A stretch of 64,000 bases of DNA from the NCBI RefSeq assembly GCF_001677475.2, contig NZ_CP015229.1; one strand, given 5' to 3'. This DNA is from Escherichia coli. GTDB lineage: Bacteria > Pseudomonadota > Gammaproteobacteria > Enterobacterales > Enterobacteriaceae. Positions 20,514-60,140 of this stretch are shown in pieces (the stretch's first letter is position 1; each line of letters begins with the position of its first letter). The notes under the pieces are model-generated. The model did not search any database, was not told where the DNA came from, and saw nothing but the letters and a program-made list of their open reading frames with translations. Position numbers and translations under genes: made by a program.

Positions 20514-21197
20514 ATGAAAGTGAATAAATTATTGATAAGCGTCCTGGCGGCTTCGACAATACTGATGCTGTCAGGTTGTGATTACGTCGAAAAAACGAAA
20601 GTCGTTGATGAACTCACAAAACAACAAGAAGAACAAAAGGCCAGAATTGATCAACTCGAAAAACGATTAGAACAAGAAACCAAAAAGACAAACACCATTG
20701 AAAAACAAAGCATTAGTCTGATAAACAGTACAAAGCTGCTGGCTCAGGTAGTGAAAGAGATTAAGCATCAGCAAGATACATTTGTCTTTACTGAATTTAA
20801 CCCCGATCAAACAAAATATTTCATTTTAAATAACGGTTCGGTAGGTATTGCCGGCAGGGTGTTATCTGTTGAAGCAATAGAAAATGGCAGTGTTATTCAT
20901 ATGTCATTGGCCAATTTATTAAGTGTTCCCGTATCAAATATTGGTTTTCATGCCACCTGGGGCGGTGAAAGACCGGGTGATCAAAAAGAATATGCCAAAT
21001 GGCAACAACTGCTATTTAGCACCAACATGAACTCCACGCTGAAATTATTACCAGGTCAATGGCAAGACATTAACTTGACGTTAAAAGGGGTGTCTCCCAA
21101 CAACCTGAAATACCTGAAGTTGGCTATTAATATGCAGAATATCAACTTCGACAACCTTCCACCTGCTGATAACCGGCAGAAAAAAAGCAAAAAATAA
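20514..21197 (+). CDS. Inner-membrane lipoprotein, SadB-like putative helper of trimeric autotransporter biogenesis
   Basis: 227 aa; signal peptide with lipobox LSGC then Asp at +2 (C22-D23, inner-membrane retention); charged coiled-coil segment (QQEEQKARIDQLEKRLEQETKK); 43 bp upstream of the adhesin gene on the same strand; AAGGA 9 nt before the ATG. Function assigned by analogy with Salmonella sadB-sadA. Confidence 0.7.
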   Translation: MKVNKLLISVLAASTILMLSGCDYVEKTKVVDELTKQQEEQKARIDQLEKRLEQETKKTNTIEKQSISLINSTKLLAQVVKEIKHQQDTFVFTEFNPDQTKYFILNNGSVGIAGRVLSVEAIENGSVIHMSLANLLSVPVSNIGFHATWGGERPGDQKEYAKWQQLLFSTNMNSTLKLLPGQWQDINLTLKGVSPNNLKYLKLAINMQNINFDNLPPADNRQKKSKK

Positions 21198-21240
21198 ATG
21201 CAGTCATTGCACTTATATCAAGGAATAGAGAGCAACAACA

Positions 21241-24200
21241 ATGAACAAAATTTTTAAAGTTATCTGGAACCCTGCGACGGGAAGTTACAGCGTCGCCAGC
21301 GAAACGGCAAAAAGCCGTGGAAAGAAGAGCGGTCGCAGCAAGCTGTTAATTTCTGCGTTGGTTGCCGGTGGGTTGCTGTCGTCGTTCGGGGCGAGTGCTT
21401 CTGTCAGTCTTGATGGTGGTACATATTCTGATGGCACCGAACTTACTGATGCATGGATTGCTATTGGTAAAGGTGCGAAAGCTTCCTCTGTAGGCGGTAG
21501 CACAGCAAGTATTTCTATTGGGGTAAATGCAATCTCTGCTGCTGGGGCTACTGCAGTGGGTTATAACAGTAATGCTACTGGACAAAGTTCAGTATCAATG
21601 GGGCAGCTATCGAAAGCCACAGGGAGCAGGGGGGTTGCTATCGGCAGTGGAGCTAGTGCCATTGGCGACTATACAGTTGCATTAGCGGTTGGCTCCAGTG
21701 CTAGCGGTGAGAGTGCAGTGGCAATAGGTCAAGGTTCCGGAGCCAAAAATAAAGGTAGTGTTGCGTTAGGTAACAGAGCGTCATCATTAGGAGAAAAATC
21801 GGTAGCACTAGGGGTAGACAGTAAGGCCACTGGTGACGATAGCCTGGCATTAGGTAGAAACGCCTTGGGCAATAGCACAGGTTCCATTGCAATGGGTGCC
21901 GCAAGCGAAGCCAATGGATTATATAGTTTGGCATTAGGCGCAAGCAGCGTAGCTAACGCGGACAATACCGTTGCGCTCGGATATGGTGCCAATGCAGCCA
22001 AAGCTGGAGCAATGGCTTTCGGTCAGGCAGGAAAGGCAGATGGTGTAAATTCTATTGCGCTGGGTAATAAAAGTCAGTCAAGCGGCGAAAACAGTATTGT
22101 GCTTGGACAAGAAAGCTATGCTGGTAGTGAAAAAAGTATTGCGATTGGTAGCCTGTCCAACGTAACCGGTGTTAACTCCGTTGCTCTGGGCACAGAGTCT
22201 ACTGCCGTGGAAGATAATACTGTTTCAGTAGGTAACGACACGCTGCAGCGTAAAATTGTCCATATGGGAAAAGGCGATATTAGCAGTACCAGTACTGATG
22301 CCATCAATGGTTCACAGCTTTATGATATCAGTAAGTCAGTTGCAGACCGTCTGGGCGGCGGTGCCTCCGTGAGTACTGCCGGGGTTGTTAACGCCCCTAA
22401 CTACAAACTGCAAAGTGGTAACTTTAATAATGTTGGCGACGCATTAAAGGGTCTTGATGATAATACGTTGCAATGGGACTCGCTTAAAAAAGTCTACAGT
22501 GCAAAACACGGTTCCGATGCCACCAGCAAAATCACCAACGTTACGGCGGGTGAGCTGAACGCATCCAGTACCGACGCCGTTAACGGTTCTCAGTTGAAAA
22601 CCACTAACGACAATGTGGCAACCAACACCACTAATATCAGCAACCTGACCGGCGAAGTTGCTAACAACACCACCAATATCACTAACCTGACGAATGATGT
22701 TGCCGCCAACACCACCAGTATCACCAACCTGGCTGATACGGTGACTAACCTTGGTGAAGATGCGCTGAAATGGGATGACACCGCTGGCGTATTCACTGCT
22801 GCACACGGCACCGAAGCCACCAACAAAATCACCAATGTTACGGCAGGTGAGCTGACGGAGACCAGTACCGATGCGGTTAACGGTTCTCAGTTGAAAACCA
22901 CTAACGATAACGTGGCAACCAACACCACCAGTATCACCAACCTGACTGATACAGTGACTAACCTTGGTGCCGACGCGCTGGCATGGGATGACGCCTCAGG
23001 TGCATTCACCGCCAAACACGGCACCGAAGCCACCAACAAAATCACTAACGTTACGGCAGGTGAACTGACGGAGACCAGTACCGATGCCGTTAACGGTTCT
23101 CAGTTGAAAACCACTAACGATAACGTGGCAACCAACACCACCAATATCAGCAACCTGACCGGCGAAGTTGCTAACAACACCACCAACATCACTAACCTGA
23201 CGAATGATGTTGCCGCCAACACCACCAGTATCACCAACCTGGCTGATACGGTGACTAACCTTGGTGCCGACGCGCTGGCATGGGATGACGCCTCAGGTGC
23301 ATTCACCGCCAAACACGGCACCGAAGCCACCAACAAAATCACTAACGTTACGGCGGGTGAGCTGACGGAGACCAGTACTGATGCCGTTAACGGTTCTCAG
23401 TTAAAAACCACTAACGACAATGTGGCAACCAACACCACCAACATCACCAATCTGGCTGATACGGTGAACAACCTCGGTGAAGATGCGCTGAAATGGGATG
23501 ACGCCGCAAGCGCATTCACCGCTGCACACGGCACCGAAGCCACCAGCAAAATCACTAACGTCACCGCTGGAACAATCTCGTCTACCAGTACCGACGCTGT
23601 TAACGGTGGGCAACTCTTTAGCTTAAGTGATTCACTGGCAGACTATTTTGGCGGTAACGCCTCGGTTGATGAAAACGGTGTATTTACTGGCCCGTCCTAC
23701 ACCATCGGTAGCAACAGCTACGATAACGTAGGTGATGCGCTGGCGGCGATTAACACCTCCTTTAGCACTTCACTGGGCGACGCTCTGCTGTGGGATGAAA
23801 CGGCAAGTGCATTCAGCGCCGGCCACGGTGGCAATGCCAGCAAAATTACCAATGTCGCAAACGGTACTATTTCTGAAACCAGCACCGATGCCATCAATGG
23901 TGGGCAACTCTACGGTGTGAGCAACTCTGTTGTTGATGCCCTGGGCGGTGGCGCCGCAGTAAATGCTGACGGTAGCATCAGTGCGCCGACGTACTCCATT
24001 GCTGATACCGATTACAATAACGTCGGTGATGCTCTGGACGCGATCGACTCAACCCTGGATGATGCGCTGCTCTGGGACGCAACCGCCGGTGAAAATGGTG
24101 CGTTCAGCGCCAGCCGCGATGGCAAAGCCAGCGTAATCACTAATGTTGCTAATGGTGATATTTCTGAAACCAGTACTGATGCAATTAATGGTTCACAGTT

Positions 24201-25905
24201 GTTCGCCACCAACACGTTGATCAATCAGCAAAATGAGATCATCAACCAGATTGCCGGTAATACCAGCACAGACTACATCGAAGAGAACGGTGCGGGTCTG
24301 AACTATGCGCGTACTAATGACACCGGCTTAACCTTTATTGATGCGAGCGCATCAGGTACTGGCGCTACAGCGGTGGGTTATAACGCTGTCGCTTCCGGCG
24401 AAAGCAGTGTCGCAATTGGTCAGAATAGCAGCAGCAGCGTTGATACTGGTATCGCGCTGGGTAGCGAATCCGTCTCCAGCCGTGTGATTGTTAAAGGTTC
24501 TCGTAACACCAGCGTAACCGAAGAAGGCGTTGTGATTGGTTACGACACCACTGACGGCGAACTGCTTGGTGCATTGTCGATTGGCGATGATGGTAAGTAC
24601 CGTCAGATCATCAACGTTGCTGATGGTACTGAATCCCATGACGCCGTGACTGTACGCCAGTTGCAAAACGCCATTGGTGCGGTCGCCACTACGCCGACCA
24701 AGTACTACCATGCCAACTCAACGGAAGAAGATTCACTGGCGGTAGGTACTGACTCGCTGGCGATGGGCGCGAAAACTATCGTCAATGGTAATGCGGGTAT
24801 TGGTATCGGCCTGAATACTCTGGTTCTGGCAGATGCCATCAACGGTATTGCTATCGGTTCTAACGCACGCGCCAACCATGCAAACAGTATTGCAATGGGT
24901 AATGGTTCTCAGACCACTCGCGGCGCTCAGACTGGCTACACCGCCTACAACATGGACGCGCCGCAGAACTCTGTCGGTGAGTTCTCTGTCGGCAGTGAAG
25001 ACGGTCAACGTCAGATCACTAATGTCGCGGCGGGTTCGGCAGATACCGATGCCGTTAACGTTGGTCAGTTGAAAGTGACGGACGCACAGGTTTCCCAGAA
25101 CACCCAGAGCATTACTAACCTGAATACTCAGGTAACGAATCTGGATACCCGCGTCACCAATATCGAAAACGGTATTGGCGATATCGTAAGCACCGGTAGC
25201 ACCAAGTACTTCAAGACCAACACCGATGGCGTAGATGCTAACGCGCAGGGTAAAGACAGTGTTGCGATTGGCTCTGGCTCTATTGCTGCCGCTGATAACA
25301 GCGTTGCGCTGGGTACTGGCTCTGTGGCAAACGAAGAAAATACGATCTCCGTAGGTTCTTCCACTAACCAACGCCGTATCACCAACGTTGCCGCTGGTAA
25401 AAATGCTACTGACGCGGTTAACGTTGCGCAGTTGAAGTCTTCCGAAGCAGGCGGCGTGCGCTATGACACCAAAGCTGACGGTTCTGTTGATTACAGCAAC
25501 ATCACTCTCGGCGGTGGTAATGGCGGAACGACTCGCATCAGCAACGTTTCCGCTGGCGTTAACAACAACGACGCGGTGAACTACGCGCAGTTGAAGCAAA
25601 GCGTGCAGGAAACGAAGCAATACACCGATCAGCGCATGGTTGAGATGGATAACAAACTGTCCAAAACCGAAAGCAAGTTGAGCGGTGGTATCGCTTCTGC
25701 AATGGCGATGACCGGTCTGCCGCAGGCTTACACGCCAGGTGCCAGCATGGCCTCCATTGGTGGCGGTACATACAACGGTGAATCGGCTGTTGCTTTAGGT
25801 GTGTCGATGGTGAGCGCCAACGGTCGTTGGGTCTACAAATTACAAGGTAGTACCAATAGCCAGGGTGAATACTCCGCCGCACTTGGTGCCGGTATTCAGT
25901 GGTAA
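21241..25905 (+). CDS. upaG: Trimeric autotransporter adhesin (YadA-like), UpaG/EhaG family
   Basis: 1554-aa ORF; extended signal peptide [21 protein letters not shown]…; YadA-like head repeats (…SVALG.NS.A.G…); long Thr/Asn-rich repetitive stalk; C-terminal membrane-anchor domain ending …AALGAGIQW. Confidence 0.9.
22561..23580 (+). repeat. Intragenic tandem duplication in the adhesin stalk (2 x ~510 bp)
   Basis: 22561-23070 and 23071-23580 align co-linearly; the first ~300 bp of each copy differ at only a few positions, the remainder is ~85% similar. Further divergent stalk repeats with 210-300 bp spacing extend to ~24240. Confidence 0.7.
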
Positions 25906-25937
25906 TGACCCATTAACAAATGGGTAAACGCCAAATT

Positions 25938-26020
25938 GCCTGATGCGCTACGCTTATCAGGCCTACAGGGGATTCTGCACATTCCTGTAGGCCGGATAAG
26001 GCGTTCACGCCGCATCCGGC
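25938..26020. repeat. REP pair (BIME) downstream of the adhesin gene
   Basis: gcctgatgcgctacgcttatcaggcctac (25938-25966) and gtaggccggataaggcgttcacgccgcatccggc (25987-26020). Confidence 0.65.
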
Positions 26021-26106
26021 AAGATAAGACGCACCAGGTCAATGGTCTAAGGGCAATTCTCTGACGGGGATTGCCCTTTTCTTTACCAGACATCTCCCTA
26101 TCAAAA

Positions 26107-26249
26107 AATTGGCCCTACCAATTCTTCGCTTATCTGACCACTGGTTCACAGTTCCCCAATTAAAACTCACATTAACGTTGCCAATACAAAACATTTAGTT
26201 AACTATTCATTGTCATTATCCCTACACAACAAAATTGGCAGTGCCACTT
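26107..26249 (+). promoter_or_regulatory. lldPRD control region with two LldR-type operators
   Basis: Palindrome AATTGGccctaCCAATT at 26107-26123 and related AATTGGcagtgCCActT at 26233-26249, ~200 and ~75 bp upstream of lldP ATG 26322. Confidence 0.5.
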
Positions 26250-26321
26250 TTACACAACGTGTGACAAGGAGATGAGCAACAGACTCATTACACGATGTGC
26301 GTGGCCTCCAGGAGACCTGCA

Positions 26322-27977
26322 ATGAATCTCTGGCAACAAAACTACGATCCCGCCGGGAATATCTGGCTTTCCAGCCTGATAGCATCGCTTCCCATCCTGT
26401 TTTTTTTCTTTGCGCTTATTAAGCTCAAACTAAAAGGCTATGTCGCCGCTACATGGACAGTCGTTATCGCTCTGACTGTCGCGCTATTGTTCTACAAAAT
26501 GCCGGTCGCCAATGCGCTGGCCTCAGTGGTTTATGGCTTCTTCTACGGTTTGTGGCCCATCGCGTGGATCATTATTGCAGCGGTGTTCGTCTATAAGATC
26601 TCGGTGAAAACCGGACAGTTTGACATCATCCGCTCGTCTATTCTTTCAATAACCCCTGACCAGCGCCTGCAAATGCTGATCGTCGGTTTCTGTTTCGGCG
26701 CATTTCTCGAAGGTGCCGCAGGCTTTGGCGCACCGGTAGCAATTACCGCCGCATTGCTGGTCGGGCTGGGCTTTAAACCGCTGTACGCCGCCGGGCTGTG
26801 CCTGATTGTTAACACCGCGCCGGTGGCATTTGGCGCGATGGGTATTCCGATTCTGGTTGCCGGACAGGTAACAGGCATCGACAGCTTTGAGATTGGCCAG
26901 ATGGTGGGACGTCAGCTACCGTTTATGACCATTATCGTGCTGTTCTGGATCATGGCGATTATGGACGGCTGGCGGGGTATCAAAGAGACGTGGCCTGCGG
27001 TCGTGGTCGCGGGAGGCTCGTTTGCCATCGCACAGTACCTTAGCTCTAACTTTATTGGGCCGGAACTGCCGGACATTATCTCTTCGCTGGTATCGCTGCT
27101 CTGCCTGACACTGTTCCTCAAACGTTGGCAGCCGGTGCGCGTTTTCCGCTTCGGCGATCTGGGCGCATCGCAAGTTGATATGACGCTGGCTCATACCGGT
27201 TACACCGCAGGTCAGGTGTTACGCGCCTGGACACCGTTCCTGTTCCTGACCGCCACCGTAACGCTGTGGAGTATTCCGCCGTTTAAAGCCCTGTTCGCTT
27301 CGGGTGGTGCGCTGTATGAATGGGTGATCAATATTCCGGTGCCGTACCTCAATAAACTGGTTGCCCGTATGCCGCCAGTGGTCAGCGAAGCGACAGCGTA
27401 TGCCGCCGTGTTTAAGTTCGACTGGTTCTCTGCCACCGGTACCGCCATTCTTTTTGCTGCCCTGCTCTCGATTGTCTGGCTGAAGATGAAACCATCTGAC
27501 GCTATCAGCACCTTCGGCAGCACGCTGAAAGAACTGGCTCTGCCCATCTACTCCATCGGTATGGTGCTGGCGTTCGCCTTTATCTCGAACTATTCCGGAC
27601 TATCATCAACGCTGGCGCTGGCACTGGCGCACACCGGCCATGCATTCACCTTCTTCTCGCCGTTCCTCGGCTGGCTTGGTGTCTTCCTGACCGGATCGGA
27701 TACCTCATCTAACGCCCTGTTCGCCGCCCTGCAAGCCACTGCAGCACAACAAATTGGCGTTTCTGACCTGTTGTTGGTTGCCGCCAACACCACCGGTGGT
27801 GTCACCGGTAAGATGATCTCTCCGCAATCTATCGCTATCGCCTGTGCGGCGGTAGGCCTGGTAGGCAAAGAGTCAGATCTGTTCCGCTTTACCGTCAAAC
27901 ACAGCCTGATCTTCACCTGTATGGTGGGCGTGATTACCACGCTTCAGGCCTACGTCTTAACGTGGATGATTCCGTAA
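26322..27977 (+). CDS. lldP: L-lactate permease
   Basis: Track ORF from 26295; conserved start ATG 26322 ([15 protein letters not shown]…) after AGGAG; 551 aa, multi-TM. Confidence 0.95.
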
Positions 27978-28753
27978 TGATGGTTATACCCAGACGCCTG
28001 TCAGACGAGGTAGCTTCCCGTGTGCGGGCGCTGATTGAAGAACAAAATCTGGAACCGGGCATGAAGTTGCCCGCTGAACGCCAACTGGCGATGCAGCTCG
28101 GCGTGTCGCGTAATTCACTGCGCGAGGCGCTGGCGAAACTGGTGAGTGAAGGTGTGCTTCTTAGTCGTCGCGGTGGCGGGACGTTTATTCGCTGGCGCCA
28201 TGACGTGTGGTCGGAACAAAACATCGTCCAGCCGCTGAAAACGCTAATGGCCGATGATCCGGATTACAGCTTCGATATTCTGGAAGCCCGCTACGCCATT
28301 GAGGCCAGCACCGCCTGGCACGCAGCAATGCGTGCCACACAAGCCGATAAAGAAAAGATACAGCTCTGCTTTGAAGCGACGCTGAGTGAAGACCCGGATC
28401 TCGCCTCGCAAGCGGACGTTCGTTTTCATCTGGCAATTGCCGAAGCCTCACATAACATCGTGCTGCTGCAAACCATGCGCGGTTTCTTTGATGTCCTGCA
28501 ATCTTCAGTGATGCAAAGTCGTCAGCGGATGTATCTGGTGCCGCCCGTTTTTTCGCAACTGACTGAACAGCATCAGGCGGTCATTAACGCCATTTTTGCC
28601 GGTGATGCCGACGGTGCGCGTAAAGCAATGATGTCGCACCTCAGCTTTGTCCACACCACCATGAAACGATTCGATGAAGATCAGGCTCGCCGTGCACGCA
28701 TTACCCGCCTGCCCGGTGAGCATAATGAGCATTCGAGGGAGAAAAACGCATGA
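27977..28753 (+). CDS. lldR: GntR/FadR-family L-lactate regulator
   Basis: Start taken at ATG 27977 ([11 protein letters not shown]…), overlapping the lldP stop by 1 nt, 258 aa; N-terminal wHTH. Confidence 0.9.
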
Positions 28754-29940
28754 TTATTTCCGCAGCCAGCGATTATCGCGCCGCAGCGCAACGCATTTTG
28801 CCGCCGTTCCTGTTCCACTATATGGATGGTGGTGCATATTCTGAATACACGCTGCGCCGCAACGTGGAGGATTTGTCAGAAGTGGCGCTGCGCCAGCGTA
28901 TTCTGAAAAACATGTCCGACTTAAGCCTGGAAACGACGCTGTTTAATGAGAAATTGTCGATGCCAGTGGCGCTGGCTCCGGTGGGTTTGTGCGGCATGTA
29001 TGCGCGTCGCGGCGAAGTTCAGGCAGCCAAAGCGGCTGATGCGCATGGCATTCCGTTTACTCTCTCAACGGTTTCAGTTTGCCCGATTGAAGAAGTCGCT
29101 CCAGCTATCAAACGTCCGATGTGGTTCCAGCTTTATGTGCTGCGCGATCGCGGCTTTATGCGTAACGCACTGGAACGGGCAAAAGCGGCGGGCTGTTCGA
29201 CACTGGTTTTCACCGTGGATATGCCGACGCCAGGCGCACGTTATCGTGACGCACACTCCGGTATGAGCGGCCCGAATGCCGCAATGCGCCGCTACTTGCA
29301 GGCGGTGACGCATCCGCAATGGGCGTGGGATGTCGGCCTGAACGGTCGTCCACATGATTTAGGTAATATTTCGGCTTACCTCGGCAAACCGACCGGACTG
29401 GAAGATTACATCGGCTGGCTGGGGAATAACTTCGATCCGTCCATCTCATGGAAAGACCTTGAGTGGATCCGCGATTTCTGGGATGGCCCGATGGTGATCA
29501 AAGGGATCCTCGACCCGGAAGATGCGCGTGATGCAGTACGTTTTGGTGCTGACGGGATTGTGGTTTCTAACCACGGTGGCCGCCAGCTGGACGGTGTACT
29601 CTCTTCCGCTCGTGCGCTGCCCGCTATTGCGGATGCGGTAAAAGGTGATATCGCCATTCTGGCGGATAGCGGGATTCGTAACGGGCTTGATGTCGTGCGT
29701 ATGATTGCGCTCGGTGCCGACACCGTACTGCTGGGTCGTGCTTTCCTGTATGCGCTGGCAACAGCGGGCCAGGCGGGTGTAGCTAACCTGCTGAATCTGA
29801 TCGAAAAAGAGATGAAAGTGGCAATGACGCTGACTGGCGCGAAATCGATTAGCGAAATTACGCAAGATTCGCTGGTGCAGGGGCTGGATAAAGAGTTGCC
29901 TGCGGCACTGGCTCCGATGGCGAAAGGGAATGCGGCATAG
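28750..29940 (+). CDS. lldD: FMN-dependent L-lactate dehydrogenase
   Basis: 396-aa ORF, alpha-hydroxy acid oxidase family (…[10 protein letters not shown]…). Confidence 0.95.
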
Positions 29941-59465: not shown

Positions 59466-60140
59466 TTAAATCCAGCCGCGTTCGGCAAAAGAAACATACT
59501 CTCCACGCCCAATCACGATATGGTCGAGCACGCGTAAATCCATGAACTGACAACTCTTTATTATCCGTTCAGTAATGAGTTTATCCGCTTTACTGGGTTC
59601 AGCACAACCCGAAGGGTGATTATGTGCAAGGATCAGCGCCGAGGCGTTTATTTTTATCGCTTCGCGGATAATTTCCCGAGGATGGACTTCAACATGGTTT
59701 AGCGTGCCGGAAAAAAGACGGCTATGCGTTATAACCCGGTGTTGGGAGTCGAGAAAGATCACCATAAAGATCTCCCGCTCCTCGCCCGTAAGCTGGCTTT
59801 GTAAAAATTCCCTCGTCATCTCCGGGCTGAGTAAAGGGCTTTCTTCACGCATCCGCACGTTGTAGTAACGCCGCGCCAGTTCAGCAATCCCCTTTAACTG
59901 GGCAAATTTCGCCACGCCAATTCCATGAACGCCACTAAATTGTTCATATTCAGAGGTTAACAAGCCATAAAGAGAGCCGAAATTCTCCAGCATCTCTTTT
60001 GCCAGGGTTAATACATCTTTACCGCGCGTTCCGGTACGCAGAAATAGCGCCAGCAGCTCGACATCCGTTAAGGCGCTAATACCAAACTTCAGCATTTTTT
60101 CGCGCGGCATCAACAGCTGTGCATTATTTTTCACCTTCAC
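59466..60140 (-). CDS. yicR: UPF0758 / JAB-MPN domain protein YicR (formerly RadC)
   Basis: 224-aa ORF with the JAMM-like motif HNHPSG; track start is GTG 60140, with GTG 60134 and ATG 60110 as alternatives. Confidence 0.85.

Follow-up and report, generated by a model that had tools for sequence, protein, structure and literature searches.

A conserved pair of palindromes upstream of lldPRD in Escherichia, in all likelihood the LldR operators O1 and O2

Two palindromes upstream of lldP, 126 bp apart, can be assigned with high confidence as orthologues of O1 and O2, the LldR operators that control lldPRD in E. coli. They were found in a 64,000-nucleotide stretch of Escherichia DNA, referred to here as the window. 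The pair of sites, the protein and the logic of control were published in 2008 (Aguilera et al., J Bacteriol 190:2997); the case presented by the window is correct but ordinary and carries little weight as a discovery. The comparison across species does, however, bear on a mechanism that is still debated, and we set out the evidence on that basis.

The operator pair and its conservation

O1 (AATTGGCCCTACCAATT, 26107–26123, no strand assigned) is the promoter-distal, high-affinity site and also matches the PdhR box. The sequence is a perfect match to AATTGGN5CCAATT, an inverted AATTGG repeat around five central bases. O2 (AATTGGCAGTGCCACTT, 26233–26249, likewise unstranded) is the weaker site, lies inside the transcribed leader and carries one mismatch to the same pattern. 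A reading of the sequence and a pattern search agree on these positions, which are those given by the first-pass annotation, and the spacing of about 125 bp claimed there is 126 bp, whether measured start to start or centre to centre, with an intervening gap of 109 bp. O1 begins 215 bp and O2 89 bp before the lldP ATG (26322–26324); the final base of the leader is 26321.

With no more than one mismatch allowed, O1 and O2 are the sole matches to the pattern in 64 kb against an expectation of 0.39, and at least two matches occurred in four of 100 shuffles. At up to two mismatches there is no enrichment in the window, with three matches compared to 4.3 expected, so that counting alone is only mildly significant. 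The third match, at 59906, has two mismatches, falls inside chance expectation and was set aside. Poisson arithmetic on the rate at one mismatch or fewer gives approximately 0.0017 sites per 272-bp leader, and the chance of meeting the pair together is about one in a million. Stronger support for both boxes being real comes from their conservation.

In the yibL–lldP intergenic region of K-12 MG1655 the same 17-mers occupy positions 2185–2201 (O1) and 2311–2327 (O2) of the extracted locus (L001), and the spacing and the offsets from the ATG (−215 and −89) are identical to those of the window. The boxes, annotated at first pass as LldR-type operators upstream of lldP, are therefore base-for-base the LldR sites of K-12. 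From O1 to the ATG the two sequences are some 95% identical, with about ten differences, none in either operator. Over the operon the DNA is 93.4% identical to K-12 and 90–93% identical to the five further loci of the genus that the scan gave (E. whittamii, E. albertii, two Escherichia sp. and another E. coli assembly), and for a 501-bp region the best identity among 5426 complete E. coli genomes is 93.8%. To judge from its sequence the window comes from a non-K-12 Escherichia lineage. Of the 5426 complete genomes, 5420 carry a single copy of the 231-bp leader, in each case chromosomal and preceding lldP.

The same arrangement extends well beyond Escherichia. A protein-based scan for LldR, with one genome per species, gave 80 loci, and the lldP start together with 330 bp upstream could be extracted for 74. 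Both boxes are in the same place in all 74 of these further Enterobacteriaceae loci, with O1 between −211 and −220 and O2 between −86 and −94 with respect to the ATG. Across 75 sequences, K-12 included, the starts of the boxes are separated by 126 bp in 62 cases and by 125 bp in the other 13; at 10.5 bp per turn these correspond to 12.0 and 11.9 helical turns. Conservation, expressed as mean identity to the window in a 75-sequence MAFFT alignment (73 species loci plus the window and K-12), is 0.94 for O1 and 0.84 for O2. It is 0.68 in the O1–O2 interval, 0.73 between O2 and the ATG, and 0.275 in the flank preceding O1. A distance held at 125 or 126 bp over a drifting spacer provides independent comparative support for an interaction between O1 and O2 that depends on geometry. 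Site identity, position, spacing, the presence of the cognate regulator gene and deep conservation are thus direct results of this analysis.

The published operators coincide with both boxes and do not lie elsewhere in the leader, and the comparison proposed at first pass could be made directly. The LldR gSELEX study of 2023 (PMC10272880) lists as LldR boxes of lldP AAtTGGcCctACCAaTT and AAgTGGcactgCCAaTT, the latter being the reverse complement of O2; that paper describes both as agreeing with the two sites of Aguilera and derives the consensus AAnTGGTCnGACCAnTT. O1 matches this LldR box at 12 of 14 positions and O2 at 10 of 14; strings and scores are both identical to the entries in Table 1 of that study, in which the lldP region also provides by far the strongest LldR gSELEX peak of the genome (62.9). 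Set against the FadR-subfamily motif TKGT-N3-ACMA (PMC4494728), the cores read TGGC-CCT-ACCA in O1 and TGGC-AGT-GCCA in O2. Both retain the 3-nt centre and the outer T and A. Each has C for the inner T on the left, and O2 additionally has G for the inner A on the right.

The operon, its promoter and its leader

Three genes follow the boxes on the plus strand, each exceeding the curated cut-off of an NCBIfam equivalog or exception model. The L-lactate permease gene lldP (26322–27977, 551 aa) scores 1197 bits against NF007740, cut-off 918, and its ATG is in frame with an open reading frame at 26295–27977. The gene lldR (27977–28753, 258 aa), for a GntR/FadR-type regulator, scores 491 bits against NF007741, cut-off 311, and lldD (28750–29940, 396 aa), for an FMN-dependent L-lactate dehydrogenase, 824 bits against NF033901, cut-off 550. 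Downstream of lldD sits trmL. The gene for the cognate regulator is therefore within the operon that it controls, and the LldR encoded at 27977–28753 is the protein expected, from its family assignment, to bind O1 and O2. It shares 94% sequence identity with LldR of K-12, and residues 28–76, which are taken as the N-terminal DNA-binding region, are unchanged.

An intrinsic terminator of the upstream gene (26049–26078, plus strand), a stem of 13 pairs followed by a T run and kept in K-12, bounds the lldP control region on its 5′ side. The upstream gene differs between the two. In the window a family-library match identifies a YadA-type trimeric autotransporter of 1554 aa (21241–25905), preceded by a 227-aa open reading frame, and the pair (20514–25905) lies between yibL and lldP; MG1655 has neither and yibL is directly upstream of lldP. 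The autotransporter end of the junction is common to about half of the complete E. coli genomes. Genes farther upstream look like mtlA-mtlD-mtlR-yibT-yibL, by size and order of the open reading frames compared to the K-12 annotation. Two repeats of REP/BIME type (25907–25963 and 25990–26030), seen as sub-threshold matches to naRNA4, lie in the stretch from the stop codon of the autotransporter to the terminator; the first is missing from K-12 at the same position. Repeats of this type explain the approximately 199,000 places in E. coli genomes that match the region. A sub-threshold Rfam match to STnc380, a Salmonella sRNA candidate, on the minus strand (26040–26148, over the terminator and O1) scored 24.7 bits where the gathering score is 60; none was obtained upstream of lldP in Salmonella enterica subsp. 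arizonae, so the match is probably due to chance.

The first-pass annotation had the boxes bracketing the likely promoter, and this accords with PMC3424551, where the two LldR sites are described as flanking the transcription start, the start itself being transferred here from K-12. A consensus sigma-70 promoter was not detected by a promoter scan of 25880–26340, which includes the O1–O2 interval, and the absence of one between the sites fits a weak promoter that depends on an activator. Aguilera 2008 reportedly places O1 at −105 to −89, O2 at +22 to +38 and the start 110 nt before the ATG. Those numbers fit the geometry of the window to the base (26212 − 105 = 26107; 26212 + 21 = 26233; 26322 − 110 = 26212), and on that basis, by homology with K-12, the putative lldPRD start is placed at 26212 on the plus strand, 110 nt upstream of the ATG.

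Just upstream of this putative start is an ArcA-box-like element (26196–26206, no strand assigned) in which AGTTAACTAT (26197–26206) has one mismatch to WGTTAATTAW. It is inside a perfect 10-bp palindrome, TAGTTAACTA, that overlaps the presumed −10 region; the corresponding sequence in K-12 is TAGTTAACCA. Conservation of this block across species is high, and it is part of a conserved island, ACATTTAGTTAAC...ATTCATTGTCATTAT, between the operators. The bases contacted by ArcA may be those of this candidate element at 26196–26206. An ArcA operator, together with −35 and −10 elements, is placed between O1 and O2 in PMC8689689, and lldPRD is among the ArcA-repressed operons of PMC3798270. Conserved TCACA/TGTGA pentamers were also observed at 26144–26171 and 26259–26265 (GGTTCACA, CTCACA and GTGTGAC). 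They resemble CRP half-sites without the canonical TGTGA-N6-TCACA arrangement. Glucose repression is reported for the lldPRD promoter (PMC8689689).

The Shine-Dalgarno sequence of lldP, AGGAG (26310–26314, plus strand), is contained in GGAGACCTGCA, which is invariant in 24 species. Folding of 24 leaders with RNAalifold gave two small hairpins (26252–26263 and 26273–26287) and one long-range helix, in which the centre and right half of O2 (26240–26244) pair with 26302–26306, just 5′ of the Shine-Dalgarno sequence. The arms read GGACC or GGGCC in most genera at 26240–26244 and, elsewhere, GGTCC or GGCCC at 26302–26306. Pair counting on the helix found 93% of cells paired compared to 25–46% in slid controls, with one pair exchanging A-U and G-C; among 71 species, 32 have G-C at this middle position, 26 have A-U, and in 13 the pair is broken. 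Enterobacter or Klebsiella leaders form all five pairs, and six Escherichia-type leaders form three or four of the five, the middle pair being broken in four. As a single sequence the leader fold is not unusually stable (z = −0.5), and probably few independent evolutionary events lie behind the covariation. That O2 is under a double constraint, as DNA for binding LldR and as RNA in a covarying leader helix, is a possibility we judge quite improbable, and the helix is a weak side lead. If real, it could affect translation of lldP or stability of the mRNA.

An upstream open reading frame of 17 codons (26272–26325) ends with a TGA that overlaps the ATG of lldP (ATGA), suggesting translational coupling. 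Its AAGGAG abuts its own ATG with zero spacer. Escherichia and a few further species preserve the whole frame, but most Citrobacter, Klebsiella and Enterobacter sequences lack the start codon; it is therefore probably not a conserved gene and was rejected as a conserved coding unit.

Control by LldR and the question of a loop

How might the two sites act? Binding, transcription start and regulation in this organism are all carried over from E. coli K-12 and should be read in that light. LldR, a dimer according to the literature, would bind each 17-bp inverted repeat, and without L-lactate O1 (−105 to −89) and O2 (+22 to +38) would both be occupied. Being twelve helical turns apart, the sites would present themselves on the same face of the DNA, and two LldR dimers are proposed to join, looping out the promoter and switching it off. 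With L-lactate the repressing complex would be lost and LldR bound at O1 would activate an intrinsically weak promoter. Phosphorylated ArcA over the core promoter may add anaerobic control, and PdhR at O1 may add pyruvate control. In the 2008 work O1 is said to be filled before O2; lactate induction was reportedly lost without LldR, and PdhR excluded.

Published support for this scheme comes from several sources. According to PMC3424551, repression needs LldR on two sites either side of the start and activation needs lactate-bound LldR at the upstream site. PMC5412874 presents a model of tetramer formation and sequestration for LldR, and PMC8689689 a model of looping in which the sites share a face and an angular orientation, with repression reported to depend on phasing. 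The arrangement in the window suits a loop between paired operators, the two sites flanking the promoter a whole number of helical turns apart (12.0). The loop is a proposal derived from phasing mutants, has never been directly observed and is the least secure step. The first-pass annotation had suggested repression by looping; the published model agrees as to repression through both sites and a proposed loop. The repressor half of that regulatory reading was right, and it left out the activator role of lactate-bound LldR at O1, together with ArcA and PdhR. The observation made there is confirmed and its interpretation supported, yet incomplete.

The alternative that survives best accepts the LldR operators and dispenses with the loop: O2, at +22 to +38, would by itself block promoter escape or elongation, and O1 would be an activator site only. 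We regard this as unlikely, though it has experimental points in its favour. An MPRA with LldR sites in a lacUV5 context found the distal and proximal sites to act without synergy of the looping type, and its authors suggest that LldR may not loop. When 10 bp are deleted from a synthetic lld promoter, the change is harmless on the O1 side and abolishes induction on the O2 side (PMC8689689); tolerance on the O1 side would suit sites that act without a loop, and the two outcomes are not simply accounted for by phasing alone. A simple block is weakened, however, by the same MPRA, in which lacUV5 was not repressed by a proximal LldR site on its own (P = 0.47). The reported need for both sites (PMC3424551) and the reported dependence on angular orientation (PMC8689689) also argue against it. 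In addition, independent sites would hardly explain a distance kept within 1 bp in 75 species when the conservation of the spacer is as low as 0.68.

Much less probable is that the palindromes, O1 above all, are mainly PdhR operators, with pyruvate and not lactate as the main signal. Within NCBIfam the paralogue nearest to LldR is PdhR. The O1 sequence is the string given as a 13/14 PdhR box in PMC7660256, and thus a predicted PdhR site, and the same study (Anzai 2020) reports a PdhR gSELEX peak here and lldP mRNA increased 3.3-fold in a pdhR mutant. Against these observations, the strongest LldR gSELEX peak in the genome is at this very region (PMC10272880). The lldR gene is moreover encoded within the operon. 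Aguilera 2008 is said to have lost lactate induction without LldR and to have excluded PdhR, and the role of PdhR is accordingly disputed, binding and derepression on one side being set against that reported exclusion on the other. Control by LldR is the reading we retain, with cross-talk from PdhR a supplement to it and no replacement. Finally, that the boxes are chance matches in an AT-rich leader with no regulatory role, as the unenriched count at two mismatches might suggest, is practically inconceivable and already refuted by conservation and literature, since the only two sites with one mismatch or fewer fall in a single 272-bp leader, both are conserved at fixed spacing over 75 species and both are identical to experimentally bound sites (PMC10272880).

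What does the window add? The O1/O2 architecture is carried intact into a lineage of Escherichia other than K-12, which is a modest addition. The lld site pair and LldR are already used in lactate biosensors. The spacing, fixed across 75 species, lends comparative support to a loop or same-face mechanism that is unproven in the literature.

Comparison with known systems

The closest relative is the K-12 lldPRD promoter itself, with the same 17-mers, spacing, distance to the ATG and lldP-lldR-lldD order. The differences are a few inter-operator substitutions, one of which makes the ArcA-box-like element a perfect palindrome in the window, and the upstream neighbour, a 1554-aa trimeric autotransporter in place of yibL.

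The loops formed at lac O1/O3, gal OE/OI and ara O2/I1 resemble lldPRD in having two operators that flank the promoter at integral turns (12.0 here) and are both needed for repression, and dependence on phasing is reported for lldPRD too, as in those two-operator systems, in PMC8689689. Unlike lac, gal and ara, the lldPRD regulator is a GntR protein of the FadR subfamily, and its loop has not been directly shown and was unseen in the heterologous MPRA. Like AraC, LldR also activates from the upstream site.

A further likeness is with the PdhR boxes of pdhR-aceEF-lpd, ndh and cyoABCDE. O1 matches their consensus at 13 of 14 positions and PdhR binds the lldP region in gSELEX (PMC7660256). Unlike promoters with PdhR boxes, lldPRD has in O2 a site absent from the PdhR site list, and its induction by lactate acts through LldR and not PdhR. 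The LldR proteins of Corynebacterium glutamicum and Pseudomonas aeruginosa are likewise lactate-responsive regulators of GntR/FadR type that act on an inverted repeat at a lactate-utilisation operon. Both are described as plain repressors, whereas the layout of two sites serving a repressor that is also an activator is specific to the enterobacterial lineage.
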